Shown: piece after piece, positions 1,848-63,459 of the stretch
How the letters are laid out: each line of letters opens with the position of its first letter
How positions within the stretch are numbered: position 1 is the stretch's first letter
Assembly: GCA_905178155.1 (NCBI GenBank)
Contig: CAJINV010000007.1
Coordinates: 590,020-654,019, forward strand
DNA: 64,000 nucleotides
Reading direction: 5' to 3'
Source: Amoebophrya sp. A120
Lineage: Eukaryota > Protista > Dinoflagellata
The notes under the pieces: model-generated
What the model was told of the DNA's origin: nothing
Database searches by the model: none
What the model saw: only the letters and a program-made list of their open reading frames with translations
Made by a program: the position numbers and the translations under genes

Positions 1848-4800
1848 ATGGTTTCTGTAGTTTCTCTCCCCATGCTCCTCTCGTTTCAGTTTCTCTTACT
1901 CAATTTCGTGGTCGAGACTGCGCAGCGCGCCACCGCGTATCCCGGGTTGACTAACGTTCGGGGCGGCGGCAAGAACGGTCGAACAAATGCGGGGACGAGG
2001 AACAGTGGTGCGTATGGAACATCAACTCGTGGAGGTCAACCCATCTCTGGACAAGAGGTAGAGCCCGCAGATGCAGAGCCTGCTGGCGCGGCGCGTGGAA
2101 CAGCATTTGCAGCAAATTCTGTGCCCCCGCCTGCAGCTCGTCCTGACGACTCGCACACCACGACGGACCCAACGCGGGAGCCAGACGTCGAGCCTTCTTT
2201 TGAAAACCCTTCTTACAAAGCCCCGACCGCGATTGTTTTCGCGGGCGTTTCCGGTGCGGAGGAGACAATTGAAGCGAACTTGCAGAATCTAATTCTTCCC
2301 TACCAACCCGCGCACGTCTTCATCTGTGGGGCAGACAAGATAAGTCCGCAATACAGGAGTTATTCTTCTCCCTCCACCGGCATGACATCAAATGACCATG
2401 AGTATCTTTACCGAAAGTGGAAGCCGTTTCTGAAAGGCGTGAATTGGAGCCCACACCCGCGGAACAACCCGCTGCAGTACACGATAGAGACGAAGGAGGA
2501 AATTCTCGCCGCGTTGAAAATCACGGAGGAAGAATACGAAGAGTACGGCGGGCGGTATTTTCAACAGCAAATCTTCAACCACACGTCCACTTCACCGTAT
2601 TGCCTAGTCCACCCTCTGAACCAAGTTTTGGACTTGATTAGGTGCTGGAAATTGGTGGAGCTGGCGGAATATGAAATGCAAAAGTATCGTACTCGCATAA
2701 ATGCGTTACAAATTTCCTCAGCATTATGAGAAATAAAATTTGTGATGCGGATTTACCTTAAGAAAATGCATGACTCATGACTGCCATTACGATAATTTTG
2801 CAGTTCATACGGAAATTGAGCAGGACATGAAGTACAAAAGAGTGGTGTTCACCCGGTTCGACAACATCTTCTTGCAGAAAGCAGACACGGAGATTCTGAA
2901 AGGGCATTTGGAGGACGAAGGAGGAGGAAAAGCTGAACCAAGCACCGGCTTATCATCATCACATCATCGGATGAGAAAGAACGACTATTATTTCCCAGGT
3001 TCCCGTCCAGCGACAGAGTCTGTGCTGGACATGCACCAGACGACCAGACTTGCTCCAGGAAGCAGTAGTTTCTCGACTTCGACGCATGGTGAGCAACCGG
3101 TTGGAGCAGTACAACAAACAGCACCCCTCGACGTCCCTGGGCAGGGACAACCGCAGTCCACCACCGCGTTTGCACCACCAGTCATAGAAAAAAACATCTG
3201 CTTCGTGCCCTGTCCGGGCCGCGACTGGGGCCACGGCATTTGTGACCACCACGCCATTTGCGACCGCATTGGGGCGGATCATTATGCCGGCGCCCGGATG
3301 TTTTTGCTTACGCGTGGGCTGAATGAAATCTGGCTGCAGAAGAAATTGTTCGATAGTTTCATTCCCGAAGTGGTGCTGAAAATCGCCTTGGATTTCACCG
3401 GAACGGTGATCAAACGATACCGCCACTCCCATGTCCGGACCTGCAACAAGCACCAGTACGAGACGGGGTTGCTGTATCCTGCGAAAAAAGTGTTACAGTT
3501 ACACACTCTGATGGAAGACAAGCAAGACAGACAAGAATGCAGGAATTTCTTGCCAGCCTCTTTGCATTCGCGTTTTCGTCCCTTATGGTCTGCGCATCAC
3601 AGGTTTTCTTTGCTATGTCGAGCAACTTTGTGATGCAAAAATTCCAAAAAATGTGTAATTGTAACACTTTTTTCCTGGGATATGCTGTACGGAAGACGCA
3701 AGCACTGCTACTACAACAAGGCACTCGGTCTGTACCACAAGGCTGGGGTTCACTTCCCGGATAACTTCTCCGCCTTATTTCGACAAGAAGCGTGGAAAAA
3801 ATTGCGGGAGGTTAGAGCAGCAGATGCAGTAGTGGCTGCAGCGACACTTCGACCAGGAGCTCCAGATCATGAGTACAACAATCCTGTGGCCGCCCGACAT
3901 GACGTAAAGAACAGGAAAATCAAGCTGCAGGTGCGGACCGGGAAGGGATCCAGATTGCATGAGACGATCTTGGAAGATGAAGATTTGTTTCGGTACAGTG
4001 ATAACAACGATCAGCTGGCGTTTGAAGGGCTCAAGTTTGAATTGTTGAAGAACGGAGCTGTAGCTGCTGCGCATGAGAACAAACAGTCTGCGCCGGTCGC
4101 AACTACGCATGCGTATGAAGAGCGCAGCTTGAACAAGGTTTTGAAAGAGGTTCTGTTGCAGGGCTCGGGTACGGAGGGTATAAGATCTGTTGTGGAAAGC
4201 CGCAACACAAATTCTCTCTACCAGTACTTCACCGACAACTACAAGTGGTTTTTCAATCCTTTCTATCAGATGCAAATATGTCTGGTAATTCTGGAAAGAA
4301 CTTGGGATGCAAGTCTGACAGTGGTGGGCGCACGACTGCTACACGCAGCCAAGCACGACAATTTTTTGAGCTGCTACGTGTTGCGCAACCCGCATGGCAA
4401 ACTGCGGCTCTGCGCCACAGCCAAGGGCCAGGCCTTTTACGTGTCTATGCATCACAGAGTTCACGCCCGTAATGCCAGAGTGATATTTGCAAAAATGCAT
4501 ACTTTCGCCGTGCACTTCCACAACCCGGCCATGCAGACGATTGTCGGCTTCTTCCGCCACTTTCTGCAGAACGTGGACCCTGGGTACTTCGAGAAATGGC
4601 AGGCCTGGGTGGAGAGAGGACAAGGGGCTTCAGAGGACGGAGAACCAAGTATTGAAAACGAGCAAGAAACTATCGTACGAAAAAAATGTTTCACTGTAAG
4701 GATTTTGCAAGTTTTGCATCACAAGTTTGTTCTACACCAGAGAGAAAATTTGCCATGCGAGATTCCTAAGGGAAAACACAGCTAAAAATCCACTGTCTTG

Positions 4801-7800
4801 CATGTGTACCAAGACAAACACCTCTCAGATACATTTTCTGCATTACAAGTTTACAGTGAAACAGTTTTTTCTTGCGATAGAAACAGACGAAGTCGAGTTG
4901 ATGATCCGAGACAAAAAATTCCAATTGCTAGCCGAGGAACTGGAGCAGCAACTGCTTGCGATGACAACATCAAATGGTAACCACACCGGAGGTTCCGAAT
5001 CTTCCGAGCTGCAAGAAGATCATAGCCAGAGTGTTGCTGATGTTCCTTCTCGACTAGCCCCCGCCCCGCTTCGCTACGACAACCCTCTTGAGATTGAAAA
5101 AGTCTACCACTCAATTCTCCTCCGCTCCCCGTTACTTCGGAAAGCGATGCAGCTATTGAGAGGAAAAATCCCCCCTCCCCATATCGAAAAGGTATGCTTC
5201 CGAAAATTTGCGTTGCTGATTTGAGGTCACAAATCACATTTGTCTTGCAAGAAGACAATGGCAGAAGCTTCCGCCCCATTCTGGAAGCGATTTGTCATGC
5301 TGTTGGGCCTAAAGGGGAGCCGTTTGCAATGCTGAGCACCTAGACCCATACGCCCCTACCTAGCCTGGGGATCTGGCCGCAGTGCCCTCCTGCAATACAA
5401 AGCTGATTCGTGTACGCAAATCCAGCATCACAAACTTCGTTTTGATATGGGGTGGGGGGATTTTTCCTTTTGATAGCAGCAGGAGAAATCACTGTTGGAG
5501 GATTTGAACCGCAACCGAGATTACTTCTTTCGACTATTCCATTCGCTGTTCAGCTCGAGTGTCGTGAAACCGGGGTTGAGCAATGAGGGCGAGAAGTTGT
5601 TGCTGAAAAACCCACTTTTGCAATACTCCTTCAACTACGTAAAGGTGAATGTTAAGCAAGCTGGGAAGACGCAGAGCGAAAGAACCGGTGGCGGTAGTCG
5701 CGAAGATCATGCTCGACGTGGTCCTGTGACCGGCTACGCAACCGGCGAGGTCGACGGGATCTTTTCCGCGCCGGATGCTACAGTGAAGGTCTCACGAGAT
5801 GAATCATCACCTACGGGGGGTGGGATCAGAGAAGAGGACGACCAAAGGAGCCGCGGCGAGCATGAGGACCAACAAGCCGGTGAGGCAAGACCAGAACAAG
5901 ATGAGAAGCCGCCGGAGCTGCAGTTCACGGAGGAAGAACTATTCGACCGGACGTGCTGGCTTCCCTGCCCGACCATCGACTGGGAATTCCTTTGCCACGC
6001 GTTTGGAATTTGCGACAACGACGATAGTGGAGTCGCTGCTTCTGCTTCTGGGGAAGACGTTGAAGATAGCAGCAACCATTCGTCTCAGCAGTCTTCCCAT
6101 AAAAATCAAGATAAACCTCCGCAAGAAGGACCACCACAACTCCCCCCCTCCCCCCTCCTTCGGACGGAGCTGCAAAAGGAATTGATCCAGGCCTACAACA
6201 GCTGGGTCATTCCGGATCACGGGATATCAAATGCAAAAGTGTCTGGGTCTGGAAGGTTGGAACTTGTGATGCTGTCTCTGGATTCAAAAAAAATTTGTAT
6301 TGCATGACCAGCAAGAGGACTCCATTTTGTGCTACGCGGAGAGGGCTTTTCTCATGCGGTAGAAATATCACAAAGCCCTCTAAAAATCTGTGATGCTACG
6401 GCATGCATCACAGACATCATGGCTCATGGAAAATATGCATGACAAATCTCGAAATCTTCCAGACCCAGACATTTTTGCACTTGATACGGGACGAGATCCG
6501 TCGATTTCGAAGTGCACGGACGAGGCTACGGAGAGAGATACGACGCCTTTGCGGACAATTGGATTGCGCAGGAGAGGGACAGGATTGATATGCTGGAGAA
6601 ACCTACTGCATCATCACCTGGACTTACGGATGGTAGCTCGTTTGATTCATCTTCTGCACTACAAGACTCGTCTGCAGCTGCTGCCAGTGACCGCGAAAAT
6701 GATGCAAAAGCTCCCGACAATGCAGAGTCTGCACTAGCGGTTCTTGCCCCCGCGCACCAAGCATCGGCCACTGCTACGACCTACAATTCCGCAAGAAGTA
6801 CTAAATCTGTCGGCAAAGATATGCAAGAAAAAAACTGTGTAAGTGTAAATCTGTGATGCAGAACACGCAGCAGAGTTACACCTGTCATGCCAGACAGCCA
6901 TGCAGTCTTCTTTTCATGTGTGTTTTCCCTTACAAACCACGCATGACAGGTTTTCTCTGTCATGTAGAGCAAATTTGTAATGCTGTCAGCCAAAGATAGT
7001 TACACTAACACAGTTTTTTTTTTGGATAAAAGAAGAGTACGCTTCGCAAGACCGGGTGCGGAATTTAGAAAAAGCGAGATTGGAGAAAGAACAGTTGCTG
7101 AAAACACGCCAGGACAATGTAGGTAGCAGTACAACTAATGATCCGCAGGAAGGCAAAAAACCAGCAAAACTGGTGACCAAATTCACGATCGAGGAGCTCA
7201 TGAAACTTTGGGAGGGGGAGGGCGAGATGTTCTACGGTGGAAGTGCAACTTCTAAGGACGGGAAAAAAAGCAAAAAGGACAACAACAACAGCATACCCGA
7301 CGTTTTTCTCCGCGAGCACAAGAGCTACGAAATTCAAGAACTAGAGGCGAAAAAACGGGCTTTTCGGATCATGCTTTCAGTATATTGCAAGGAAAAATCC
7401 CCCCTCTCCATATCATAACGAAATTTCTGATGCTGGATTTGTGTACACAAATCAGCTTTGTATTGCAGGAAGGCACTGCGGCCAGATCCCCAGGCTAGGT
7501 AGGGGCGTATGGGTCTAGTTGTTCAGCATGGCAAACGGCTCCCCTTTAAGTCCACCAGCATGACAAACCGCTTCCCTAATGGGGCGGAAGCTTCTGCCCT
7601 TGTCGTCTTGCAAGACGCGCGCGATTTGTGACCTCAAATCAGCAAAGCAAATTTTCGGAAGCATAGGTTTTCAATATGGGGAGGGGGGATTTTTCCTTTC
7701 GATACAGTGGGCGAAGTGACAAGGGAAAACAACCAAGAGCCGAACGATCCGCTAGAACAGGTGGAAGCTTCTCAATCTTCTGCAGGCACAAAAAGCACAC

Positions 7801-8747
7801 GTCCAAAGTACGATATCACGAGAAAAAAGTGTATACAGTTACACATTTGTTGGAGTTTCTGCATCACATATTTTCTCTGTGTGGCAGAGAAAACTTGTAA
7901 TGCGAAGATCATAAGGGAAAACAGGAAGGAAACAAAGCTCCGAAGCATTTCCTGCATGAGAAAGGTTGTCTCTGTTGCCAGTCTTGCATGACAATGTGTA
8001 ACTGTAACACTTTTTTCTTGGATATACGAGCGCGCCGAGCAGGTCGCGTGTCAACAGGACCTGGGGAAGCTGTATCTCAAGTACAACTGGGCAATCGACG
8101 AGTATTACCCCGACGCGAAGAATCACTTCTACAAGGTTCCGATGCAAACGATCTACTCGGAGACGCAGCCGGTGACGTGCGTGCACCCAAGTCTCCCGGA
8201 TCTGAAAAACCTCATCGTGCAAAACTCCCCCTGCCGGGCGTATACTTGGAAGAAATCTTGGAAAAAACCGCTCAACCGGGCGTACTTCAAAAAGCAGAGC
8301 TGCAAGTTCGGGAGAGAATTGAAGCTGTTGATGCCGAAAGCAGCTGAAGTGCTGACGAGAAAGAACAACTGGGCGAGAGGGAAAGTGGAAGAAGAAATTC
8401 AGTACAACGATGATGGGGACCACGTCAAAGTAGACCCCACCACGACCACAACCGCCTCTAAAATGTTGAACGCTGGTGTTAGCTACGTGAACGTCAGCCA
8501 GGAACTGCCCTTTCTCAACTTCGAAAACGAACCGACGATCGAGAAATACTGGAAGTCAAGACCAAGAAATTCCCTCGTCCCTCCACACTCACACATTCCC
8601 AGAAATCTAACGACCACGACGGTGTTCGAGTTTCTGAAGTCCACGCTGCTCCCCATCGTCTTTTCCCAAGACGGGAACACGGTGTTTCTCCCCAGACTAG
8701 AGCCGGCGCAGTTAGATACGACGATACCCGGACATCAGGCGTCGTGA
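1848..8747 (+). CDS. Gene 1: ~1658-aa secreted or membrane-anchored protein with a glycosyltransferase-like N-terminal region; join(1848..2669,2815..3474,3688..4670,4885..5153,5481..6224,6492..6819,7034..7382,7710..7813,8030..8747)
   Basis: Removing 8 introners plus one DR each joins the ORF fragments in frame (4977 nt). Hydrophobic N-terminus. Motifs AIVFAG, HVFIC, YKRVVFTRFD and GICDHHAI recall uncharacterised GT-like proteins; function is tentative. Confidence 0.75.
2670..2809. mobile_element. Introner family B
   Basis: TIR tatgaaatgcaaaagtatcgta / tacgataattttgcagttcata; DR cggaa; restores LAEIEQ. Confidence 0.9.
3475..3682. mobile_element. Introner family C
   Basis: TIR core aaaaaagtgttacagttacac; DR tgctg; restores GLLYGR. 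Confidence 0.9.
4671..4879. mobile_element. Introner, C/E-related
   Basis: TIR tatcgtacgaaaaaaatgtttcactgtaa / ttacagtgaaacagttttttcttgcgata; DR gaaac. Confidence 0.9.
5154..5475. mobile_element. Introner family D
   Basis: TIR core ggaaaaatcccccctccccatatc; DR gcagc. Confidence 0.9.
6225..6486. mobile_element. Introner family A
   Basis: TIR tatcaaatgcaaaagtgtctgggtctggaag; DR cggga. Confidence 0.92.
6820..7028. mobile_element. Introner family E
   Basis: TIR tatgcaagaaaaaaactgtgtaagtgtaa; DR aaaga. Confidence 0.9.
7383..7704. mobile_element. Introner family D, opposite orientation to 5154
   Basis: Interior is the reverse complement of 5154-5475; DR cagta/cagtg. Confidence 0.9.
7814..8024. 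mobile_element. Introner family C, opposite orientation to 3475
   Basis: Family C TIR; DR tacga. Confidence 0.9.
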
Positions 8748-9493: not shown

Positions 9494-12400
9494 ATGTCGG
9501 ACATCACTACCGTTCGTCTGTTGGCCCCCTACCCTGCCAAAGGGGATCAACATTTCATCCACGCGGCCGGGGGTTCCTGTACTACAGGAACTACTACAGC
9601 TACTACCCCACAACCACCTGCGGGAGATGAAAACAGAAAGTTCAACAAGGACCACGTGGAAGTTCTGACTTCCTACTCCTTAACCGGCGCTGTGGTCCTC
9701 GACGGTACAAAATCGACTTCCCTCACCGGTTTATCCTCGAGTGCCAACGTCGTTTCTCTGCTGCGGGAGCGTTTAATCGCCGAAAACGCGGTGCCCTTGC
9801 TCGGGAACGAAGAGATTACAGTGAAGAACAACGGTATGGAGAGAAACAAGTTTGTCACAGTCACTAACTTGCAGGTTTTGCAGTACAAATTTTTTCAGCA
9901 TCACAAACTTTCCTTGTGTTGCAGAAACACTAGGGAAATCCCTAATGAAGTTTGGCTGTGATGCATTTTTACGCATGACAAACAATTTTGTATTGCAAGA
10001 ATGCGCATGAGTGATCGTGACGAACTTTTTTTCTTTGATAAACGGATTGGAGGTGGACGTGAAATTGCTGTTACCGGAGGAGTTTTTTCGCGACGATAGT
10101 GCCAAGAAGCTAGGAGGTGAGAAACCTTGTCTTTCGACGTCCCAAGATGAAGATGAAGCCGCGACGACTGGGAATAATACCATCGAAGAGCACGAACCCG
10201 AGATTGAAAAAACCTTGCTCCACAAGTGGCTGGCCTGGCTGGTGCAGAAGGCGGTGGATGAAGATAGTGCGGACAATATCCTGTGTAAAAATGTCCCCAT
10301 GATCCCAGAGTTGTCATGCAGATTTGCGATTACAGGAACATTTGTAATGCGCATCGCCATGAGAGGCATTTCCAATCGTGTTTTTGAATCTGTAATGCTG
10401 TAAACACGGTGAGATAGTGGCTTTCTCATGCGGCTTCCCTTGCTAAGCAGACCTACACTTCTGCAGATGGAAACTTGTCATGCACAACTCCCAAACCTTG
10501 GAGATTTGTGTTGCAGATTTACCAATTTGAGTTTGACTACGGGGTGGGGGCATTTTTCCTCTCAAGAGAGAAAGTGGGAAAATGGACGGATCTGGCGGAA
10601 GTGGAGCTTTTATTTTGCTACCAGTATGGCTGCTCCTTTGACAAAACGAACAAAATCGTGGACAATTTGTCCTTGCTACAGCTACTAAAACTCTTCCCGA
10701 AGTGGTTTCAGATCAGCGAGACAGGACAGGAATTGCGGTTACTGGAAAAACCGGCGGTATTCGTTTAATGGAGTTTTTTCTAATGGTGATCGTTTATTCC
10801 ATGCGCATGTATAAATGCACCTTCCAGCATGCTAGTTTCTAGCACGATCGCAAATTATCCAAATTCTAATTGACGACTCGATTTTCAGGTCGCTCCCACG
10901 GTTCTTTCTACCGCCGCGGAACCCGAGCCGGAACTTGTTTCACCGCATGACAAACCGTCGTCACTCAAGGTCGATTTGGACCAAACTTTGGGCGACAATT
11001 CCTCCGTGCCCGACCTGTCTTCCTCCGTCAGCAGCAACAAGTTCCGCCCGCCGCCCGGTTTGGAAGCCTTGAGTGCAACATCCAGTTTGCCGAAGATCAT
11101 TAACTTGGAGAACGAGAAAACTATTCTTACTGGTTCCAACGATGATGATACAACGAATTTTGTCGCTACAACTCCCCGCGCAGCTGGTCTCCGCCCGACC
11201 TCGCTTTCCCAGGGAACTTCGGGGTTCTTCGGCACTCCGCCGCCGCTATCACGCAGAAAAAAGCAGGCAGGTCACATTTGTAATGCAAAAAATCTGTATT
11301 GCATATCCCAAACAGCATGCTATGTGGCCTCCCATGACAGATTTTTCTGTGTTTTCTTATTTTTGCATTACAAATCTGACCTGCCTGCTTTTTTCTGTGG
11401 GATAGCCGCCCCCTCCGCTGCCGGAGGACGGATTTTCTTCGGATGAGGAGGAGTATCAAATGTAAAAATGTCTGGGTCTGGAAGATTGCCGGGTTTGTCA
11501 TGCACATTTTGCATGACTCCTCAAGTCTGTGATGCATGCCCTAGCATCACAGATTTTTAGAGGGCTTCCTGATGCCTATTCCGCATGACAAATGCTCTTT
11601 CCGTGCTGCAAAATTCGGACTCTCTTTGCTGCTCATGCAATACAGATTTTTTTAGAATCCAAAATCAGCATGACAAGTTGGATTCTTCCAGACCCAGACA
11701 TTTTTACATTTGATAACGAGGAGGAGTTGTCTGCTTCTAAGGGAACGGCATCGAATCTGAATCTGTCGAATAAGCAGACATCCCTCAATGCCGCAGCGGA
11801 ACCCTTTACCATGCCACAAGCGCCACATGCTCAGGCGGGACGTGCAGCGATGTCGATGAAAGAAACCGCATCGCAGGTGGCAGCAGGGTTGAGTTCTTTA
11901 CCGGATTTCCACCACCAGCACCACGTGCACCAATACAACAATCATTTTCCCGGCAGTTCCTTCGCCTGTAACATTGGCACCATGCCCGGATCCTCCTTGC
12001 TGCACTATCCGCAAACGCCCGGGCCGCCGCCCCTAGCGGGACCCCTGCCCCAATTGCCCTACTACCTCAACGCCGGTGCTGGTGCAGCTAACGCGACCAC
12101 CTCCGGAGGAGATCAACAGTCCGCGGCACGAAAGCAAGAGCTACAGATGAAACCTGGTGTAGTCGTGCAGCAGCCAACATCTACCAGTACTACTTCTACC
12201 ACTCACGTGCTCGTCGCCACCGATCCTTCGTTCACCGGGATGGCTTCGACCTCCGCGGCGGCTGCTGGGAATTACTCTCCGTCGCATTTACAGTACCATG
12301 GTCACGTGCATCCGGCGCCGCAAATGCAGCTCTTCGGCGGTTCCATTTTCACGTATAATAACTGCAACCAGGGTTCTTCTGTGGTGAGCAATCCGAATGT

Positions 12401-14160
12401 TCTTGTCGGAAATCCACCGGGGACGAGCGCGTGCGGGAATGGCACAGCCACGACTGTGCAGAACTTCTTTCAGCAAAACTCCAGCTACGTCAGCAAGAAA
12501 TACTATCCGCAGTCTTTACTACCCGAACATTTGCAGCATCAACGACGGGCGAAACAGGAGGCGCGACTGACGCAGGAGGATTTCGCCATGCTGGCCGACA
12601 TCGATTCGGATTCCGATTTATCCACTGCAAATATGTTGTCTTGGACTGGAAGTAGAAATAGAATACAGACGTTTGTCATGCAGGTTCATCTGCATCGCGC
12701 AGAAGCAGAACCTACCAGAAGGTACTACGGTATGCATAGCATCACAGGTTCTACCGCGAGAGCGGTGCGATGCCTGTTCTGCATATAGGGATCCGCCCTC
12801 AGTTGTGTGGCCAAATAATGCGGGAAGCTTAGGCTGCACTCCTCGCATGACAGATTTTAGCGTGACTGGCAGAAAGCATCACAAGTTTTCATCTTTGCTT
12901 TCCAGAGCCAGACAGACTTGCAACCGATACGATTGCAGCTCCGATGCGGACACCTCGGATGAGGAGAGTACTTCTACTACTTCGATGTAGTTTTAAGATT
13001 GTATGTCGGATCGTACAAACGACAACTCGCATGACATTCACAAGCAGAGTTGCATAGTTGTGCATGACAAACTTGAATAATACCAAGATGCCGCCCTGGC
13101 GCTCTGTGAGCTGCGGCACCGGGCCACGGTCAACTGCGACTCGTTTTTGAAGCTGTTTCAGAACCACTGCTATGAATAGCAAACATGTCTCGGTCTGGAA
13201 AGAACTGTTGATGCTCGATTGGGGATTTGATTGCAGCAGGTTGTCTGAGTGCAGCGAAGCATGGTAAGTTTTTGAGACCTCATCCTGACCCTGAGTGCGC
13301 ATGACAAACTGCGTTTTTGCATGACAAAAAGAAGCTGCTGTGCCGTTGCTGGTGATTGTCATGTAGTGCAGATTGTAGAGAAATAGAAAAGCATGAGCAG
13401 CAATACAAGTTGCGTTTTCATCCCAGACCGTTAAACGTGTTTGCAATGCATAACCCCGACCTGAATGTTTTGAGCTACAAGAAGGAGGGGTTGATCCAGC
13501 ATGCGACGAAGTGGAAAGTGGAGGAAAAAGTGACGGTTTATATGCAAGAAAAAAACTGTGTAGGTGAAAGTCTGTGATGCAGAAAATGCAAAACAGTTAC
13601 ACTTGTCATACTGGACATGCATCAGAGGCTTTTTCCGTACGTGTTTTCACGTACTAGCCGGGCATGACAGGCTCTCTCTGTCATGCAGAGCAAACTTGTG
13701 ATGCTCTTCCTCCAAGAACGTTACACTAACACAATTTTTTCCTCTGATAGTTTACATCCCAGAACTACCGGCGGAAGGATATGGCGCTCTCAAACGTTAC
13801 ATCCTCAGCTGTCACATGAATTTGTTATGCAAAACTACCATCAAGATCCACACGAGCAAGCCGCTTCGCATGACAAATTTGCGAAGGGCTAAACAGCGCC
13901 GAAATCTGTGCGGAATTTGTAATGCTAGAGGTGCAACCTTCCCCTTGGACTTTTGCTATTCTTGCATTGCAAATTCGTGTAACAGATGAGAATGTAACGT
14001 TTGAGAATGCCATAAAGGAACCCGCTCCTACATCTGCTTGCCGATACTCTGTATACAACTTGTTTGTTCATCTCTGAAGATCATCTACTTTTCGCTGACC
14101 ACGTTAAGGAGGAGTATTGCTGGGTGTCTTGCGGGCGCGCATGAGAAAGAAGACCTTTGA
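9494..14160 (+). CDS. Gene 2: multi-exon protein with two putative OST-HTH/LOTUS-like domains and long low-complexity linkers
   Basis: 8 introners plus GT-AG introns 10757-10888 and probably 12968-13087 give a continuous frame; the junction near 10565 is uncertain. Segments WTDLAEVELLFCYQYGCSFD...SLLQLLKLFPKWFQI and VNCDSFLKLFQNH.DLNVLSYKKEGLIQ resemble the LOTUS pattern. Confidence 0.55.
9835..10040. mobile_element. Introner, C/E-related
   Basis: TA ends, imperfect TIR, DR aacgg; restores KNNGLEV. Confidence 0.85.
10277..10565. mobile_element. Introner family J with eroded right end
   Basis: Left tatcctgtgtaaaaatgtcccc as at 45920; right ggggtgggggcatttttcctctcaag lacks the terminal TA and a clear DR. 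Confidence 0.65.
10757..10888 (+). other. Canonical GT-AG intron
   Basis: gcg|gtattc...ctaat...ttttcag|gtc joins ORF 10475 to ORF 10976 in frame. Confidence 0.75.
11247..11404. mobile_element. Introner family K with ~45-bp TIR
   Basis: tatcacgcagaaaaaagcaggcaggtcacatttgtaatgcaaaaa with its inverse at the right end; DR gccgc. Confidence 0.9.
11454..11715. mobile_element. Introner family A, reverse orientation
   Basis: Family A TIR; flanks atgaggaggag / acgaggaggag. Confidence 0.9.
12619..12929. mobile_element. Degenerate introner family A
   Basis: Eroded TIR; DR cgatt; restores DSDCSS. Confidence 0.8.
13171..13452. mobile_element. Degenerate introner family A
   Basis: tatgaatagcaaacatgtctcggtctgg ... 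tttgcaatgcata; DR actgc/acccc; element plus 5 nt keeps the frame. Confidence 0.7.
13541..13749. mobile_element. Introner family E
   Basis: Similar to 6820; DR gttta. Confidence 0.9.
13780..14014. mobile_element. Introner family G-related
   Basis: TIR tatggcgctctcaaacgttacat / atgtaacgtttgagaatgccata; DR aagga. Confidence 0.88.
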
Positions 14161-51600: not shown

Positions 51601-51669
51601 CGGCTTAATTGAGCTACTCCATACCCCATCGCGCCGAGTAACTGGAAGGAAACCTACCGGAAGATGTGA
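39666..51669 (+). CDS. Gene 6: ion-channel (voltage-sensor) / class III adenylyl cyclase fusion, alveolate AC-alpha type, ~1163 aa in 22 exons
   Basis: The spliced frame gives TM helices (FFFWLDLIATFSLLIDIPW), S4 VRTARAVRLVRLIRLVRVVKL, LVIRPIEKMV, ETTMLENTILKIGGLLQVGFGEAG, FGFVDIRQFT, NKNIGDAFL, GLHVGWAIEGPIGSDYKIDASYLSPHVN, a TPR-like YLAGDWRLAR and the C-terminus F.APSNWK. It has 20 introner-type introns and one GT-AG intron; 3492 nt total. Confidence 0.9.
39840..40114. mobile_element. Introner family A
   Basis: Family A TIR; DR cgttc/ccttc. Confidence 0.9.
40474..40737. mobile_element. Introner family A
   Basis: Family A TIR; DR cgatc. Confidence 0.9.
40852..41159. mobile_element. Introner family H
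   Basis: TIR gtgtcaggattgaaa / tttcaatcctgacac; left end TT instead of TA; DR cgagt/cgaat. Confidence 0.88.
41534..41789. mobile_element. Introner family G
   Basis: TIR tatgacctactcaaacgttacaatctcaaacgtt; DR gcggc. Confidence 0.92.
41833..42102. mobile_element. Introner family A
   Basis: Family A TIR; DR accgc/accgg. Confidence 0.88.
42159..42404. mobile_element. Introner family A
   Basis: Family A TIR; DR tgtgg. Confidence 0.92.
42462..42719. mobile_element. Introner family A, inverse of the 40474 subfamily
   Basis: Family A TIR; DR gtcgg. Confidence 0.9.
43176..43321. mobile_element. Introner family B
   Basis: Family B TIR; DR aaaaa/aaaga. Confidence 0.88.
43409..43591 (+). other. Canonical GT-AG intron in the cyclase gene
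   Basis: cag|gtacag...ttag|gtt joins the conserved GGLLQ-VGFGEAG. Confidence 0.88.
43773..44034. mobile_element. Introner family A
   Basis: Family A TIR; DR ctcca; very similar to 57315. Confidence 0.92.
44100..44416. mobile_element. Introner family D, inside the catalytic NKNI|GD motif
   Basis: Family D TIR; DR catcg. Confidence 0.92.
44566..45496. mobile_element. Family B introner expanded by a nested ~0.75-kb insertion
   Basis: Family B ends 931 bp apart; DR tttgg/tttgt; restores ADRSL.AFLKII. Confidence 0.8.
44729..44900. repeat. 13-bp tandem repeat aggtgaccttgac, ~13 copies, decaying to the right
   Basis: Seen directly. Confidence 0.9.
45599..45858. mobile_element. Introner family G, opposite orientation to 41534
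   Basis: Family G TIR; DR aactg. Confidence 0.92.
45920..46209. mobile_element. Introner family J
   Basis: TA ends, imperfect TIR; DR tccaa; restores EGPIGSDYK. Confidence 0.9.
46401..46556. mobile_element. Introner family B, reverse orientation
   Basis: Family B TIR; DR ggaca. Confidence 0.9.
46738..46948. mobile_element. Introner family C, reverse orientation
   Basis: Family C TIR; DR ccgca/ccgcg. Confidence 0.9.
47006..47270. mobile_element. Introner family A
   Basis: Family A TIR; DR cgctg. Confidence 0.92.
47443..47732. mobile_element. Degenerate introner family A
   Basis: Eroded TIR but intact TA ends and DR atgtc. Confidence 0.85.
47796..48017. mobile_element. Introner family F, opposite orientation to 37361
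   Basis: Family F TIR; DR caaag. Confidence 0.9.
48119..48303. mobile_element. Introner family C variant
   Basis: Family C TIR; right end CA instead of TA; DR gagaa/gcgca. Confidence 0.8.
48968..51591. repeat. Three direct copies of a 41-47-bp sequence at 48968-49014, 50361-50401 and 51545-51591
   Basis: cattatgcgagacgtcgcttgattcgtgttgaacttgaaagctggca; the outer copies are identical. Confidence 0.9.
50526..51054. mobile_element. MITE-like element with acctgagtaaa TIRs, subterminal hairpin repeats and an internal ~97-bp tandem repeat
   Basis: actcaggtccggtggcctgag-type hairpins at ~50543, ~50579 and ~51017; tccatggagaaa units at 50758, 50857 and 50953. Confidence 0.65.
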
Positions 51670-53470: not shown

Positions 53471-56400
53471 GTACGGTTCGTGGCGGGAGTGGAGCAGGGG
53501 GAGCGAAAATTTTGGAACCCCTTTGCAGGCTTGTTCGGGGGTGGCGAGAAGAAAGTACTCGCTACATAATCTAACTAGACTTGTTCACTTTAGTTTCACT
53601 TTCCATCTTTGCAACTGATCTGCTTCACAAGTTGTATCTTGTTTTTCATCATTTGTCATTCACATAAACAGGACCCGGCCGAGCACGACGATGACGGCGA
53701 CGATAACGAACGTATCAAAAAAAAAAAAGAATGAGGGCACATCAACGTGCGATGGTGTCAGAAATCCAGCTGAGCGAATACGTGATGCGCCAGCTGTGTT
53801 GTGCTTGAGGTTGGACAAAGTGTAATTTTGTATTATAGTCTTGCGCTTTTCCACCTTTTGGATTTGGAGCTAACGCAGAGGGTGAGCGTCTACATCTACG
53901 GTGAAAAAATGGTATGAGTTAGAGATTTCCATCCACGTCGTTGAGATTTTTCCGTTTCATATGAGTGGAGCAGGAAGACACGGAGAAGGCGGCGCCGAGC
54001 GTCTGGGAGAGTTTTAAAGGCTTGCTTGGCTTGAGCGGCGGAACAGATGATGTATTAAAGCGAGCACTTGTGTTACCGCATGTAGAGTTTTCTTGCTTCT
54101 GGGCCACTTGTCGTGCTTACACCGCATCCATATTGAGAAAATATTGCCGGTGTCGTTTCATGACTCGATCGCGAGTCCCCTCTACAGTTTTCAGTTTTAC
54201 CATGGTATAAATATACACGAATGCAGGGGACGAAGAGTAGTTTGTTAGCCGGTAGTGATTTGTTCGTTCTGCGCATTTGCAGCTTCCGCGTTTACTTCCT
54301 CAGTAGGTGTAGAGCTTTTCCCATTAGGTTTTTTCATACGGAAGCACGATCTTTCCGCGGCCTGTGCTACAGCACACTGTCCCTGAAAAAGGCGACGCTG
54401 CAGCCTTGGAAGAATGGATGGCGAAACGACATGAATAAACAACAAGTTGATCATGTTGATTATAGATGGAGTCGTCGAACAGCTACTTATTCTATTCTTG
54501 TTTCTGTCCATGTCAAAACAGGCGGCAAAAAAGGAGGAGGAACGACAACAAGCAAGGCTAGCTGCCCAGGAGGCAGTTAAGCAAAAAGCCGCTCAAGCAA
54601 AAGCTGCCGCCGCCGCAAAAGCTGAAGAACAAGCTCAGGTAGAAACTGCTGACATCGGCATGCATGTTGACTAGAGAACGAAGTGTAGTTTTCCTTGATA
54701 GGTACTTTTTCTTCACTCCTTCCACATTCCTGCGTTTCGCTCTGAGCGTTGCTCTTTTCGATATTGGCACATTGGCGATGGCAGCCCTGCAAAATGATGG
54801 CTCTCGTCGAACAAGTTGACATGGAGGGTGATGAAATAAAACAAAAAGCTGCACCAGCTGTAGTCTTGCATCTGCTACTTCTCCTGCTATTGGGCCTGTT
54901 GTATTCTTGTTTCTGGCAATATTAAAACAGGAGGCGCAAATAAAGGCCAAGGAAGACGAGGAACAACAAGCGGCCGAGAAACGAAGGCTACTTGCTGAAG
55001 CTGCCGCAGCAGAGGCCCGAAGAAAGGCCGAACAGCAGAGGAAAGACCCAGAAACCGCTGCGAAAAATGCCGCGAAAGCAAAAGCAAAAGCGGGAGCGGC
55101 GCATTACAACGTGCAAAAGTGGTGTGGTCGTGAGGATTCGCATTATTCTACGGCGCATATGTCCTCTGTTGCTATTCAGTCGAGTTTTGGGTTGACTATA
55201 GTACAATGGAAAAGTTCTTGTTGTACTGCACACTAGGCGAGATACTTTGTCCATGAAGCTAAAATAGATTCGTCTTCGAATTATAATGCACCCTGTTCTT
55301 GTTCGCCGTTGTGGACTACAAGGCTCGGCGCGTGAGCAATCCCTTCGATCGTGCGTTGCGGTGCTGTGAAAGCAATTAGATTTTATAGAAGTAGCACTGT
55401 TCTTGTGCTCCACCTCGTCCTTCTTCCTGGAGGAACTTTCTATATTTTCTTCAACAACTCTAGCAAATTTTGATTTCGTGTTGATTGTCCTGAAGCGCTT
55501 CGACGGACAGGAGAAGTCTTGCACAGTATTGCCGCGCTACGTACCTCGGCTACCTCGCACTTGCTAAACTGTTGCTATGCCCTACACGACCACGACACTT
55601 TTGCACTGGATCATGACGGCGCGGTGGAGTCAGCACAAAAAGTGGAAGGCGCGCAAGGAAGCCCGCCAATGTCACCATCCAAGCTCCTACCGAAGGAAAA
55701 AACTACCCCATCTCGAAAATCGTCATCGTCGTACAGGGCTTGCAAGAATATACTACGAGCTTGAAGCTCATGTCGGCCGGGAAGGACAGTCCTCTAGAAA
55801 TACCTACTGACTTCTTGACGATGCCGAACACAACCTGTGCATAACTGAGCCAGTTGTAGTCTGTCGCTAAGTGGGTCTGCTTTGATCCACGAGAAAAATT
55901 AAAGCATAAAATGTCTGGGCGCAACGATCTTCACGAAAGCGAAGCAGTGGAGCTGTGTTGACAGAAATAACTGGAGAATCAAAATAAGTAAGTCCACGCA
56001 CGGTGTCTGTATGAATTCGAAGATGAGGTAGAAGTTTTCTTTTCATACCGTTCGAGAGCCCGCAGCAGTATGCTCTCTCCAGACCTGCACCTGAACGCGC
56101 TGATGGAGAACGCTGCCGGAAAACCGAGTGCCATCACCCCCGTGCCGCCTGCAGGAGGAGGAGGAGGAGGGGCTTTATCTTCTGCCTCGTCGCCGCAGAA
56201 GCCAGTTATTTCTTCTTCATCGTCGCCGTCTCCTTCATTGCAGTCGAAACCAGTTGCAGCCACTTCAGCAGCTTCATCCCCTCCATATCCCCAGTGAAAA
56301 AGCAAACGTACTCACCAGCCTCGAGTAGTGGTCATGCAGGTCTACTGCGTCATCTAGTCTACATCTGCCGGCGCCTTTGTAGCAACGTCCTTATAATTTC

Positions 56401-57588
56401 CCCTGAGAAGAGGAGCATAATTGAATTTGTACCTACTCGTACTAGTCGTCGTATTTTCGTTTTGTCAACAGGATGCTGAGCTACTCGCGGAGGGCTTTGT
56501 GATGTATCAATCTGGTGTCCTCCTCGTCCTCCTCGCTGATCAGCAGCACTCATACTACAGACCAAAAGAACTTGTTATGCGTAGTGAAGAATACCAATAG
56601 AAACTCGCTTCTTTTGATGTAGCAGAAGTCCCACTGGTTTCACTGAGGGGCGGGTACGTTTTTACTGAGGATACTCAGGAGTTGTCGAGAGTCAACAGCG
56701 CTCCAGGACCAAAGCCGAGGAGCACGCCACCCGCATCTCCGAAGAAGGAATCAACACCCGCAGCTTCTGCACCTGGTATCCAGAAAGAGAAATGTGGTTT
56801 CGTGTAACAGCTTCGATCGTGGACTGACACTATGACATGACTAATTCATTTCTCTGCATCCAGTATAGAGATAAAATTTGTCGTTGTCATGCATAGCTAC
56901 CACCGGAGATTGATATCTCAGAGGAAGACAGCCGCCGTTCAAGGCTGGCTGGCATGAGAGACATGACTGGTGTTTATTTGCATTTTCTCTGCATCTTCTT
57001 CTCAGATTTATTGCACAACTAAGACAGTTTTTTTTTTCCTGGATACCGGGCGCATCGCCAACTGGAGGAGTGGCAGCGCAGGCTGAATTGCGGAGGGTTC
57101 AATCTGCTATCACTCCGACTCCGTCAAAAAGACCTCCACCACCTGCGTCTCCGGCTGCAGCTTCAGTGAAGATGAACTTGGGTGCCGCTTTTGAAGAAGC
57201 CGCCGCTGCAGAGAAGAAGGGTTCTCCCTCTGAAGCTAGCACTCGTACGCCCTCTGAAGCTAGCACCTTTCATGATATCCGAATCGAAAATCGCCCCTCG
57301 TCCGCTGAAGTACTTATCAAAAGTAAAAATGTCTGGGTCTGGAAGAATGCAACTTGTGATGCTGTATTTGGATTCCAAAAAAATCTGTATTGCATGAGTA
57401 GCAAACAGAATGCAACTTTTGCTACGCTGAGAAGGCATTTGTCATGCGGAATAGGCATCAAGAAGCCCTCAAAAATCTGTATTGCTAGGGTATGCATCAC
57501 AGACATCATGGCTCATGCAAAACGTGCATGACAAGTGTCAGAATCTTCCAGACCCAGACATTTTTACAGTTGATATGAAGCTGGCTAA
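53471..57588 (+). CDS. Gene 7: low-complexity Ala/Glu/Lys- and Ser/Pro-rich protein with mostly short GT-AG introns plus two introners; exon structure and 5' end uncertain
   Basis: Exon-like blocks at ~53965, 54522, 54931, 56083, 56680 and 57051 with cag| acceptors and |gt donors; stop at 57586-57588. Confidence 0.45.
56777..57045. mobile_element. Degenerate introner, E-like
   Basis: tatccagaaagagaaa / tttttttcctggata; DR cctgg/ccggg. Confidence 0.8.
57315..57575. mobile_element. Introner family A with a 4-nt spacer at the left junction
   Basis: tgaag-tact-[element]-tgaag. Confidence 0.88.
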
Positions 57589-57976: not shown

Positions 57977-59838
57977 AAAAACCCATCCCACGGCTGTTGG
58001 AAGATCATCCACAACTACGTGGGCCGCCGCGGGGCGCTTTTCATTCTCATATCTTCGTCCGCGCCCTCGTCCACAGGGCAAAAGGCAGGAACAGTGAGGA
58101 GGAAGTTCTCGTTTGCAGACGAGTTACCCCAGAAAGCCGTCGAGTTACCCCAGAACGGAAACGTATGGATGTGTCAGAGTTGAAATCGACAAAGTTGAAA
58201 TAATTTGTCATGCATAAAATGGATGCCAGTTGGAACCCAGTTCCCAAGTGGCGCATGACAAATTTCGGTGGTCCCTAAATCCAGTTTGTCATGCTGTTTA
58301 GGCAAAGAAGAGCGATTTTCTCATGCTACTTTAGCAGCTCGAGCTGTGACCCCAAACAGGCTTACAATCGGCCTCAATTGCCTGCTCTGCAACACACGTA
58401 CCTCGGGTCATGCATTTCATGCATTACAAATCATTTCAACTTTGACGATTTCACACCTGACGCTCCCATAAAACGTAGCTCCGTTGACCGAAAAAAATCT
58501 GGCAGCTGCCAAGTTGACCAAGGACGGGCTATTGTGAGGAAAAATCCCCCCTCCCCATATCGAAAGCGAGATTTGTGTTGCTGTATTTGAGTACACAAAT
58601 CACGTCTGTCTTGCTGGAGAGGACTGCAGACCCATATCAAGCCTGAGTAGAGAGGCTTTGACTTAGGCGCTTAGCATGAAAAGCGTCCGTGATGTTGGCT
58701 CAACAGCATGACAAACCGCCTGCACAATGCTGCGTAGCTTGTCGAGTTGCCTTCTTGCAAGACAGACGTGATTTGAGGTCGCAAATCAGCAACACAAATT
58801 TCCGGAAGCATAGTACCTTTTCGATATGGGGAGGGGGGATTTTTCCTCTTAATACGGGCTGCGCGTTATCCTGTGCAAAAGTATCGCACTCGTATCAATG
58901 CCAGACTAGCATCATGACATCAAGTCTGGTTTTTTATGTAATTTAGCATGACAAATTGAATTATTTCATGCTGAGCTAATTTGTAATGCATCTACACGAG
59001 TACGATACTTTTGCAGTTCATACGCGTCGTGCCTATTCAACCAAATCGTTTTCTTCCTCGCACCAAGACACCAGGAACAGCCCTTGCTCGGCCGGGATCC
59101 ACCAAGCCACACGGTGGGTCTCCTCCTTCTGGACGTGGAACAAGCGCAAGCGGTTTGGCTCTCACAAGTCGTGTATGCATTGCAAATATGTCCGGGTGGT
59201 CTGGAAGGTTGGAACTTGTGATGCCTTCTTTGGATTCTAAAAAAATCTGTATTGCGTGACCAGCAAGAGGCGCGTAGTTTGTGCTACGCGGAGAGGGTAG
59301 TTCTCATGCGGAATAGGTAACAGGAAGCCCTCTAAAAATCTGTGATGCTAGGTCATGCATTACAGGCGTCATGGGTCAGGCGAAGTATGCATGACAAGCC
59401 TAGCAATCTTCCAGACCCAGACATATTTGCACTGCATATCGACGGCAGCCGCCGACCGGAAGAATTTCATTCGGGATGTTGAGCAAGAGTATGAATAACG
59501 GCGGAAAAGGGAACAATAAAGGCGGCAAAGGGATGAAAGCTGCGGGAAAAGGGAAAGGCGTGGGGTGGAAGGGCAAGGGAAAAGCTGTCAACAAGGGGAA
59601 GAACGGCAAGGGAAAAGGTGCCAAGGGAATTGGCAAAATGGGAACCGGCAAAATGGGAAACGGCAAGGGAAAGGGAAGCAGCCGCGACGGAAACGGAAAA
59701 GGCAAGGGCGAAGGTGGCAAAGGAAAAAGTGGCAAGGGAAAAGGTGGCAAGGGAAAAGGTGGCAAGGGAAAAGCGGCGTGGAAATCAGCTTCCTTTGCGG
59801 AAGTCGACGCGGAAGGGACGATTAGTGGGCCACTTTGA
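57977..59838 (+). CDS. Gene 8: basic protein ending in a Gly/Lys (GKGKG) repeat domain; start codon not located
   Basis: Removing four introners gives ...DELPQKAVELPQNGNVAPLTEKNLAAAKLTKDGLRVVPIQ... running into ORF 59476..59838. Confidence 0.65.
58164..58470. mobile_element. Introner family H, opposite orientation to 40852
   Basis: Family H TIR; DR aaacg. Confidence 0.9.
58530..58854. mobile_element. Introner family D
   Basis: Family D TIR; DR cgggc. Confidence 0.92.
58867..59022. mobile_element. Introner family B
   Basis: Family B TIR; DR cgcgt. Confidence 0.92.
59174..59438. mobile_element. Introner family A
   Basis: Family A TIR; DR tcgtg/tcgac. Confidence 0.88.
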
Positions 59839-59840
59839 TT

Positions 59841-60102
59841 TATCAAATGCAAAAATGTCTGGGTCTGGAAATTTTCTAGACTTGTCATGCAGGTTTTGCA
59901 TAAGTCTTGATGTCTGTGATGCGTGCCCTAGCATCACAGATTTTTTGAGGCCTTCTTGATGCCTATTCCGCATTACAAATGCCATCTCCGCGTAGCAAAA
60001 ATTGCATTCCCTTTGCTGCTCATGCAATGCAGATTTTTTTGCCATCCAAATGCAGCATCACAAGTTCCAACCTTCCAGACCCAGACATTTTTACATTTGA
60101 TA
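59841..60102. mobile_element. Introner family A inserted at the stop codon / 3' UTR
   Basis: Family A TIR; DR tgatt contains the TGA stop. Confidence 0.92.
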
Positions 60103-60254: not shown

Positions 60255-60319
60255 GTCTTCTTACGTTCTCAATTACCACTTTACAAGCGTCTTCTTACGT
60301 TCTCAATTACCACTTTACA
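60255..60319. repeat. 31-bp direct duplication, period 34
   Basis: gtcttcttacgttctcaattaccactttaca occurs twice. Confidence 0.8.
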
Positions 60320-62068: not shown

Positions 62069-63459
62069 GTGAAGAAGATGAATAAGGCGAAACAGGCGAA
62101 GGTGCTGCGGGACAGCTGTGCCAGGGCGGCCCCCGCCCGGGGCAGGTCCTCGTTCCCGAAGAAGTTAGCTGGCGCTGCGTTGTTCGCGCACAGCCAGACG
62201 GGGTGTGCACCAGGCGCGCACGGGTTTGAGGTGTTGCTCACCAACCGGAAGAAGGAAAATAAGGTGCACCTCGGCAACATGAAGAAGGAGAATGTTGTAT
62301 CGCGAGGGAAAATCTTCACCCCTCCCCATACTCACAATGCAAATTTGTGATGTTAATTTGTGAGACCACAAATCTAGTCAGCTTTGTCTTGCATATGAGG
62401 CATCAAATAGGAGGCGTGTGGCGTATTGCACAGCCAAGCTGTCATGCGCTTTTGCCTACTGCATCTGCAAAGCTGTCTGTCATGCCTGAGTGCTAAGTAG
62501 ACTTTTGCATACCTAATCAGGCTCAGCAAATTATGCCTGCAAGCGCTTACTGCAATACAGCGCTAATTTGTGTACGCAAATCCAGCTACAGAAATTCCCG
62601 TTTCGATGTGGGGAGGGGGCTTTTTTCACTTTGATATGTTGCGGCAGACGAAAAGAAAGTAGAGTCAATTACTTCATCGCTCTCCACCGCCAAGTGCACC
62701 ACGCTCGCCACCAGCAGCTATTATCATCGGTGCAAACTATGCATTGCAAATATGTCTGGGTCTGGAAGGGTGCAAGTTTGTGTTGCTCTGCTAGAATGTC
62801 CCGCATCTGTCATGTACGATACCCAAAAGCCCCAATTTTCTGTCATTCAAAAACGCAGTTTGTCATGCTGAATAGACAACACCTTGCAACTCAGAAACTT
62901 GTCACGCTGAGCCGTCATTTGTGGCGTCTTCATGATTCGGCGGCCAGCGACGTCACAAGTTTCCAGACCCAGACGTATAATTTGCATTTGATACAAACTA
63001 GGCACTGACTACGATCCCCTGAAGATCACTTTTTGGAAGGGAGCGAAGAAAGGCGATGCCGAAAAGTATGCTGAGTTGACAAAAACAGAACCGGAAAACG
63101 AGGTGAAGGCTGACTTCTGGAAGACCGATCTTGGATTCGCTGCGCTGGACACAACGGTGTCAGCGGACTCTGCCTCGAAGCTGTTTGGGCTCCAGTGCGC
63201 AAATCATGATAAAGAAAACGAATGGATGTCGTGGGCCTACCAGAACGACATGACGGGCTTCAACAATTTCTGGAAGGGCGACAAATATGACGTCCTCGAA
63301 CTGCAGTGGTGGAGGGCCCCGTGCATCACCAATTGTTTTTTTGGACATAACCAAAGGGATCGCAAAGGGGGTGAAGTGAAAATTGTCGGCAAGAACTGCG
63401 TACCGGCGGAATCCTCCGGAACGGGTGCAGCAGATTCATCAGCTTGCATGGGCTGCTGA
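62069..63459 (+). CDS. Gene 9: unknown protein, 5' exon(s) unresolved; join(62069..62297,62642..62737,62999..63459)
   Basis: Removing two introners gives a continuous frame ending ACMGC*. Confidence 0.65.
62298..62636. mobile_element. Introner family D
   Basis: Family D TIR; DR tgttg. Confidence 0.88.
62738..62993. mobile_element. Introner family A
   Basis: Family A TIR; DR caaac. Confidence 0.9.

Follow-up and report, generated by a model that had tools for sequence, protein, structure and literature searches.

The dinoflagellate Amoebophrya sp. A120 has been reported to carry some 29,850 repeated non-canonical introns, and its introners are described as having a TAT start, an A-run, inverted repeats (IRs), direct repeats (DRs), and non-canonical borders; no U1 was reported as found in A120 (PMC7789003, Farhat et al. 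2021). Here, we describe the introners in a 64-kb stretch of this genome (assembly GCA_905178155.1, contig CAJINV010000007.1, positions 590,020 to 654,019, forward strand; hereafter the window), together with those of 143 outside loci (408 kb). All counts refer to this sample and not to the whole genome. The introners share an internal motif whose sites are set at helical spacing on both DNA strands, and their removal from RNA is probably governed by their ends.

Introners of the A120 window

The window elements are known A120 introners with TAT...ATA ends and 5-bp target site duplications (TSDs). This identity is based on an exon that is 100% identical to an A120 protein and on the match of the elements to published A120 introners; the family lengths found here (109, 150, 209, 222, 236, 262, 279, 307, and 322) match A120 families listed in PMC12130899. 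Fifty-five elements were mapped in the window by their ends and TSDs, several being added or adjusted by hand (10277, 12988, 40852, 47443, and 48119), partly guided by leftover motifs. A motif-blind detector, which uses ends and TSD only and requires a 4/5 TSD match in the loci, made 41 calls in the window, all in agreement with the curated list, and no false call in the 49,516 bp of element-free window. The same detector found 310 further elements in the outside loci. These loci were drawn by the F0 end, so that F0 is over-sampled, and hold the same families without a long match to the window. The resulting 364 elements fall into 31 clusters, 13 of which contain at least three copies (families F0 to F12). 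Searches with the F0 end gave no match in viral contigs, and Rfam gave none at the gathering score across the whole window.

TAT stands at both ends in at least 210 of 229 oriented elements (11 and 8 deviating ends), the termini read TAT(C/G), and A occupies positions 11 to 14 in 80 to 94%. The TSD is matched at 5/5 positions in 37 and at 4/5 in 11 of the 55 window elements, and at 5/5 in 271 and 4/5 in 39 of the 310 locus elements. Beyond approximately position 15, terminal inverted repeats (TIRs) differ between families, yet the arms pair within each element; TIRs are common to some families (F4, F10, and F12). Across F0 to F12, TIR divergence does not follow TSD decay, and elements with poorly matched TIRs therefore appear recently inserted.

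After removal of the element plus 5 nt, 48 of the 55 introners lie inside plus-strand open reading frames (ORFs) of at least 250 amino acids (29.5 kb in total). By this detection, no introner occurs in long non-coding stretches (e.g., 19400-21100, 37900-39600, 52000-55900, and 60200-62000) or in the 1478-amino-acid ORF at 21167-25600. In the outside loci, Pfam identifies core genes interrupted by introners, encoding RNA polymerase Rpb1 (L062), an SNF2 helicase (L011), and KIN17 (L030). Four locus introners carry internal inserts of ~100 to 370 bp with the 5-bp TSD intact (L041:3094-3724, L040:571-1051, L022:3304-3760, and L022:4470-4838); these copies may have picked up host DNA, or they may have been hit once in place.

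A conserved motif recurs in every introner family examined

The first-pass annotation of the window pointed to an octamer, TGT(C/G/A)ATGC, on both strands of elements with different TIRs, and singled out four sites. All four are present, one as TGTGATGC (2741) and three as TGTCATGC (5293, 40897, and 41684), and they belong to families F1, F4, F7, and F8, respectively. Exact matches number 83 on the plus strand and 72 on the minus strand, and allowing T at octamer position 4 adds just three. The 55 elements (13,449 bp) contain 147 of these 155 octamers (10.9/kb), while eight lie in the remaining 50,551 bp (0.16/kb). Dinucleotide shuffles of the element sequence yield 3.5 ± 1.9 octamers (maximum of 9 in 200 shuffles), and shuffles of the sequence outside yield 4.7 ± 2.4 (30 shuffles), so that the outside count is at chance level.

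At least one exact octamer is found in 54 of the 55 curated elements and in 303 of the 310 locus elements (960 matches in 76,438 bp). The full motif is broader than first stated: a family-weighted profile spans ~13 bp and reads approximately RRYYTGTVATGCW, with the variants TCTCATGC and TGT[A/G/C]TTGC and an A/T run immediately upstream of the core. It may bear some likeness to RBFOX, ApiAP2, or C/EBP-ATF motifs. At 11 bits, profile sites occur at 18/kb inside elements versus 0.24/kb outside, and all 364 elements carry 2 to 10 of them. The octamer is the core of this conserved motif, which recurs on both strands in every A120 introner family examined.

Motif sites form a lattice with a period that fits B-DNA

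Spacing was analyzed for 72 sites in the 13 family consensuses, using pairs within 140 bp. Among same-strand pairs, 22 of 82 are spaced 31 to 33 bp apart, compared to a null mean of 2.7 and a maximum of 10 in 5000 (maximum of 13 for the best 3-bp window anywhere), and such a pair is present in 12 of 13 families. Opposite-strand pairs are found at 15 to 17 bp (11 of 74; corrected P = 0.001) and at 45 to 50 bp (14 of 74), with none at 31 to 33 bp. The sites thus form a lattice in which direct sites stand whole turns apart and inverted sites half-turns apart.

The periodicity that the first-pass annotation had proposed to look for is present, with a bootstrap period of 10.44 bp (10.34 to 10.50). 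The combined phase score peaks at 10.4 bp with z = 9.0, or 8.1 when the 31- to 33-bp pairs are left out, and falls to -0.9 at 11.0, and the observed phase of 0.503 exceeds the maximum of a strand-shuffled null (0.295). The phase repeats with the exact octamers of the window only (0.454 at 10.4 and -0.011 at 11), in a nine-family subset (0.46; null maximum, 0.30), and in 18 singletons (0.31). B-DNA has a helical repeat of ~10.5 bp per turn and A-form RNA one of ~11; the period fits the former and not the latter, and the constraint therefore acts on DNA. On these sequence grounds, the motif is very probably a binding site on double-stranded DNA.

Sites are also placed relative to the element ends: inward sites group at distances of 33-34, 43-45, 53-56, 64, and 75-78 (Rayleigh p = 0.0006, and 0.002 for singletons), in a test that resolves the period poorly. 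The spacers between sites paired at 32 bp share 30% identity across families (61 pairs), which is the chance level, and no 10-bp AA/TT/AT (A-tract) periodicity is seen around the sites.

Core conservation and old copies

Private differences amount to 498 in 12,537 core positions (0.040), compared with 2,535 in 26,148 spacer positions (0.097) and a rate of 0.066 in the TIRs. The core diverges less than the spacer in 12 of 12 families, at ~0.4 times its rate, whichever base class is considered and irrespective of CpG. The core/spacer ratio is 0.60, 0.47, 0.47, and 0.42 in pairs ordered by increasing distance.

As to whether the motif is kept in old copies, the data lean toward decay without being decisive: strong-site density drops as the TIRs decay (rho = 0.44, p = 0.0008, n = 54), and its trend with TSD decay is not significant. 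The TSD mismatch rate is at least 2.5% (39 of 310 elements, one mismatch each). A rate of this size makes the core differences in close pairs (3.4%) explicable as neutral change after insertion. The old-copy data are compatible with, and no proof of, selection during transposition only. For a post-insertion test, the 310 elements contain no pair of same-site alleles; in the TIR arms, G-U and A-C mismatches on the transcript strand number 235 and 201, respectively (p = 0.11).

Element ends and removal from RNA

Removal of the elements plus 5 nt regains ORFs of 1617, 3144, 761, 604, and 618 amino acids. Contigs of one sample, from runs presumed to be RNA (none being recorded as RNA), supply joints within 35602-51627. 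In these contigs, all 11 elements in 43773-48303 are skipped as element plus 5 nt, as are two more (35602 and 37361); in run X5, elements are present unskipped at a depth far above that of its unique sequence. All 12 joints checked fit N/TA...TA/NNNN (slashes mark the cuts), including one with a decayed ACA end, a fit that is uninformative for perfect TSDs. Where the TSD copies differ, RNA letters 1 to 4 come from the left copy (48119 directly; 35602, 39840, 40852, and 43176 via piece ends) and letter 5 from the right copy (44566 and 46738). Removal is probably set by the ends and not by the motif, the 5' cut falling 1 nt ahead of TAT and the 3' cut 4 nt past ATA. This rule, N/TAT...ATA/NNNN, defines splice sites without GT-AG. 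G at intron position +1 is not required (34%), this position being free, and the 5' end, N-UAU(C/G), looks to us like a donor of the yeast type whose first base is free. Template switching by reverse transcriptase was rejected as the source of the joints, since the ORFs need the removal and two joints share just one letter.

The first-pass annotation suggested that the motif may mark the segment for removal and that its presence on both strands would explain orientation independence. Neither suggestion fits F3, which has sites on one strand only yet is inserted in both orientations (six versus eight). One-strand-only sites occur in 24 of the 229 oriented elements (15 sense and 9 antisense). 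Of these kinds, the copy at 45920 (no sense and six antisense sites) and that at 47443 (three sense and no antisense sites) are both skipped exactly, and the lattice-free 2.8-kb intron described below is spliced as well. An RNA splicing enhancer would be needed on the transcript strand, whereas sense-only and antisense-only copies are both spliced. The 5' and 3' TIRs show no asymmetry at positions 4 to 16, and orientation independence follows more simply from these symmetric ends, which suffice to explain it. The element at 44566 is still skipped (936 nt) with a ~0.7-kb insert (0.9 kb in total). This insert (44690-45415) contains tandem GACAGGTGACC-type repeats.

In run X8 (raw RNA of another strain or species), the 85-nt left end of an F0-like element occurs between constant foreign flanks (window 35601-35686). 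X8 matches the element ends only, at 90 to 95%, and was set aside for the joints; this copy is apparently one-armed and retained in RNA.

A decayed 2.8-kb last intron in the cyclase-like gene

The gene at 39666..51669, named as a relative of class III adenylate cyclases from the source labels of its homologs, contains 19 introners, one GT-AG intron (~43409-43591), and a last intron of 2822 nt. Pfam assigns no family to P0001 or P0002. The 2822-nt joint (48804 to 51627) is seen in four runs. The outer 161 and 83 nt of this intron contain no site of at least 4 bits. Toward the 3' end, the last ~350 nt are free of sites, and toward the 5' end, no site reaches 7.5 bits in the first 1.2 kb. With the intron removed, the C terminus agrees with that of the A25 ortholog in 9 of 13 residues and stops at the same residue. 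The A120 annotation (P0001) reads through the intron and lacks the conserved cyclase C terminus; the fixed cut rule thus corrects one annotated gene end. The inner 2.6 kb of the intron lies between 47-bp direct repeats (48967 and 51545), with a similar copy near 50360, and the interior includes a GC-rich stretch as well as an inverted repeat (50526-51055).

A putative shared DNA-binding mobilizer

The first-pass annotation had proposed a common trans factor. The 10.4-bp phasing and the conservation in every family tested support this factor as a binder of double-stranded DNA, while the removal-marking role was not supported. We consider it reasonably likely that one shared protein mobilizes the elements and that the lattice supplies its putative binding sites on double-stranded DNA. 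The binder could tentatively be the transposase itself, which we rank above a host architectural cofactor of transposition, an unlikely but conceivable binder; the candidate mobilizer is probably an integrase-like transposase. Several copies of a DNA-binding domain would dock on one helix face (three turns between direct sites, half-turns between inverted ones), and docking would bend or wrap the 110- to 320-bp element such that the two TAT ends synapse. An integrase-type DDE enzyme would then cut and insert with a 5-nt stagger. If one protein recognizes the lattice together with the short end common to the families (TAT, with an A-run at 11 to 14), the rest of the TIR would be free to drift between families, with its arms staying complementary. 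The shared lattice could explain how a single enzyme might serve many families whose TIRs are unlike.

Several points weigh against a shared mobilizer. Pfam gives no transposase or integrase in the 119 locus ORFs (0.4 Mb) or the eight window ORFs, and Farhat et al. report none found in A120 (PMC7789003, available portions). The families may share deep ancestry, and F3 and F5 are without overall phase (-0.04 and 0.07). The core/spacer ratio never reaches 1, so that selection during transposition is not cleanly separable from selection after insertion, and site density by TSD decay (1.74, 1.61, and 1.35 per 100 bp) does not change significantly (p = 0.24; loci, p = 0.11). The 2.8-kb intron represents a single case in a single sample, and the short side of its joint measures 29 to 30 nt; the intron is also covered by unspliced contigs and has two exact octamers in its inner insert. 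Sites that read as sense in the transcript show slightly better conservation (-0.020 versus consensus with p = 0.016, and -0.006 with p = 0.24 for private differences) and a slight excess in number (z = 2.0, chiefly in F0), and predicted pairing is higher for motifs than for spacers (0.76 versus 0.60), with 506 of 1208 sites pairing with another motif.

The lack of a reported transposase (PMC7789003) also suits a host DNA-binding protein on the lattice that marks the segment for cotranscriptional removal, the intron being defined on DNA. Phasing and strand independence would fit any binder of double-stranded DNA, all 364 elements have at least two profile sites, and the lattice-free 2.8-kb intron is seen unspliced too. 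We nevertheless regard this as improbable, because the lattice-free and the interrupted intron are each spliced precisely where the rule places the cuts, site density drops with TIR decay, and the sites keep phase with the DNA ends, the points at which cutting by a transposase would be expected. The slight sense-strand preference and the predicted pairing would instead point to an RNA signal, either a single-stranded site or motif-motif helices folding the intron, that is read by a splicing factor; in close F0 pairs, motif position 4 is matched in 44 of 124 (33.8 expected) and mismatched in 80. A period of 10.44 and not ~11, the 24 one-strand-only elements, one of each kind spliced, and the motifs of F3 and F9, which cannot pair with each other (motif-motif pairing at 4 of 136 and 0 of 20 sites in predicted folds), make such a signal quite improbable. 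Given the weak bias toward the sense strand, RNA may still have a minor part to play.

Dinucleotide positioning signals are far less specific than the motif, and the 10-bp AA/TT/AT periodicity is missing around the sites. It is accordingly just as doubtful that the lattice acts by placing or keeping out a chromatin particle (nucleosome or DVNP), to the benefit of the element's insertion or survival, despite the period near 10.4, the A/T run just upstream of the core, and the link between introners and linker DNA in other species (PMC9860276). The TAT end and A-run common to the families, together with the TIRs shared by some, could also reflect a functionless relic, with one ancestor built by 32-bp duplications and the motif kept by descent. 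This is very improbable and largely refuted by the chance-level identity of paired-site spacers (0.30), by cores that diverge at 0.4 times the spacer rate and less in 12 of 12 families, and by the half-turn spacing of inverted sites, which tandem duplication cannot yield.

Under the favored reading of a shared mobilizer, a lead for the enzyme is A120 family 38, known from a table row with "5-bp TSD, TA/TA termini" and a Ginger label, together with Copia/Gypsy homology (PMC12130899, supplement 8 and text). A bolder and improbable extension is that one DNA-wrapping factor reads the lattice on some 30,000 introners, moves all TIR families, and, through its position on the gene, also hands the transcript to a U1-less removal machinery; if true, the mobility of this intron class, and part of its definition, would depend on a DNA-architecture code and not on RNA splice signals. 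The analysis splits mobility and removal of A120 introns into two testable codes, a phased motif on double-stranded DNA and a fixed cut rule, and the former offers a bait for the missing mobilizer.

Features of the window

The mapped features are collected in Table 1. In addition, a GC-rich palindromic element with 52-nt arms lies between genes at 14200-14375; it has no TSD and no motif, and its arms are of another kind.

Table 1. Introners and related features of the window. No strand is assigned to introners; "exact" counts exact octamers (individual positions in parentheses); the basis is ends + TSD, and "ORF" denotes a frame restored on removal.
Feature	Position	Strand	Motif sites	Basis or remark
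Introner F1	2670..2809		1 exact (2741)	ends + TSD; ORF 1728-8744 restored
Introner F2	3475..3682		2 exact	ends + TSD; ORF
Introner F0, degenerate TIR	4264..4501		1 exact	ends + TSD; ORF
Introner F2	4671..4879		2 exact	ends + TSD; ORF
Introner F4	5154..5475		2 exact (5293)	ends + TSD; ORF
Introner F0	6225..6486		4 exact	ends + TSD; ORF
Introner F2	6820..7028		4 exact	ends + TSD; ORF
Introner F4	7383..7704		1 exact	ends + TSD; ORF
Introner F2	7814..8024		3 exact	ends + TSD; ORF
Introner F11	9835..10040		3 exact	ends + TSD; ORF
Introner F3	10277..10567		7 profile sites, all sense	ORF evidence only; hand-curated
Introner singleton	11247..11404		2 exact	ends + TSD
Introner F0	11454..11715		5 exact	ends + TSD
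Introner F0, degenerate TIR	12619..12929		4 exact	ends + TSD
Uncertain short 95-nt remnant	12988..13082		2 exact, 33 bp apart	hand-added; junction fits no clear frame
Introner singleton, F0-like TIR, TSD 3/5	13171..13452		2 exact	ends + TSD
Introner F2	13541..13749		4 exact	ends + TSD
Introner F6	13780..14014		2 exact	ends + TSD
Decayed introner, TSD 2/5	18000..18231		1 exact	761-aa ORF restored
Introner F2	29971..30181		3 exact	ORF 26848-37881 (3144 aa) restored
Introner F5	30283..30505		2 exact	ends + TSD; ORF
Introner F1	31520..31668		2 exact	ends + TSD; ORF
Introner F0	33585..33830		1 exact	ends + TSD; ORF
Introner F0	34718..34974		4 exact	ends + TSD; ORF
Introner F0	35602..35863		3 exact	skipped in RNA contig (X1)
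Introner F5	37361..37579		3 exact	skipped in RNA contigs (X1, X4)
Host gene, relative of class III adenylate cyclases	39666..51669, approximate	+		exon 100% identical to P0001 (A120)
Introner F0, cyclase gene	39840..40114		3 exact	ends + TSD; ORF
Introner F0	40474..40737		4 exact	ends + TSD; ORF
Introner F7, left end TTT	40852..41159		2 exact (40897)	hand-curated; ORF
Introner F8	41534..41789		3 exact (41684)	ends + TSD; ORF
Introner F0	41833..42102		5 exact	ends + TSD; ORF
Introner F0	42159..42404		4 exact	ends + TSD; ORF
Introner F0, reverse orientation	42462..42719		3 exact	ends + TSD; ORF
Introner F1	43176..43321		1 exact	ends + TSD; ORF
Introner F0	43773..44034		4 exact	RNA skip 267
Introner F4, TAC/GTA ends	44100..44416			RNA skip 322
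F1-like introner split by ~0.7-kb insert	44566..45496			RNA skip 936
Introner F8	45599..45858		3 exact	RNA skip 265
Introner F3	45920..46209		6 profile sites, all antisense	RNA skip 295
Introner F1	46401..46556		3 exact	RNA skip 161
Introner F2	46738..46948		3 exact	RNA skip 216
Introner F0	47006..47270		4 exact	RNA skip 270
Degenerate F0	47443..47732		3 profile sites, all sense	RNA skip 295; hand-curated
Introner F5	47796..48017		2 exact	RNA skip 227
Introner, TSD 3/5, ACA end	48119..48303			RNA skip 190, 1 ambiguous letter; hand-curated
Decayed 2822-nt intron G/TAT...ATA/CCCC, last intron of cyclase gene	48806..51627	+	lattice-free ends	no TSD, short stem
Decayed introner	56286..56673		0 exact, 3 profile sites	ends + TSD
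Introner singleton	56777..57045		1 exact	ends + TSD
Introner F0, TSD 1/5, at ORF end	57315..57575		4 exact	ends + TSD
Introner F7	58164..58470		4 exact	ends + TSD
Introner F4	58530..58854		1 exact	ends + TSD
Introner F1	58867..59022		2 exact	ends + TSD
Introner F0, TSD 3/5	59174..59438		4 exact	ends + TSD
Introner F0, directly behind stop codon lying in its TSD	59841..60102		5 exact	ends + TSD
Introner F4	62298..62636		2 exact	ends + TSD
Introner F0	62738..62993		1 exact (62861)	ends + TSD

Comparison with known systems

The published account of A120 introners (PMC7789003) gives DRs of 3 to 5 nt at variable positions, which differs from the 5-bp TSD found here, cut after its fourth letter. The available portions of PMC7789003 and PMC12130899 (IR-logo figures and supplement files 13 and 14 lay outside the search) hold no description of the internal motif, its phasing, or the fixed N/TAT...ATA/NNNN cut, nor do those of PMC12501133, PMC10368747, PMC2836005, PMC9860276, PMC11282704, and PMC3660474. 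The elements themselves are already known; new here, as not found in print (subscription papers and theses lay outside the search), are the motif, the site lattice, and the fixed cut.

TSDs of the hAT superfamily are usually 8 bp long; with 5-bp TSDs and no transposase seen, membership of the introners in this superfamily was rejected. The internal sites do resemble hAT subterminal repeats (Hermes BED sites, Tol2, and Tag1; PMC10368747) in that a short conserved motif with an A/T-rich flank occurs in multiple copies, in either orientation, internal to the TIRs, with asymmetry between the two ends; hAT sites are bound as double-stranded DNA, which is putative here. The introner motif differs in its length (~13 bp versus 4 in hAT), its spread over the whole element, its 10.4-bp lattice, and its presence in families with unlike TIRs. 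Unlike hAT elements, introners are also precise introns.

Among Ginger2/TDD elements, TDD-4 and TDD-5 make 5-bp TSDs as the introners do, while most Gingers have 4-bp TSDs and their ends read TGTNR versus TAT(C/G) here (PMC2836005). Membership was rejected on these termini. No Gypsy-integrase-like DDE transposase of an autonomous partner was found among the 119 locus ORFs of the 0.4-Mb sample. The lattice can be likened to the interior of the Stowaway element Ost35, a MITE (miniature inverted-repeat transposable element) whose interior raises transposition by a non-cognate transposase; Ost35 belongs to a different superfamily, and the available text describes no phased repeated motif (PMC3660474).

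The nonconventional introns of Euglena carry the signature CDG/CH'G in place of TAT/ATA, and no internal phased motif is described for them in the available portions of PMC12501133. They share with the A120 introners a MITE-like origin, paired ends, the lack of GT-AG, and a cut whose distance from a paired terminal signature is fixed and asymmetric (PMC12501133).

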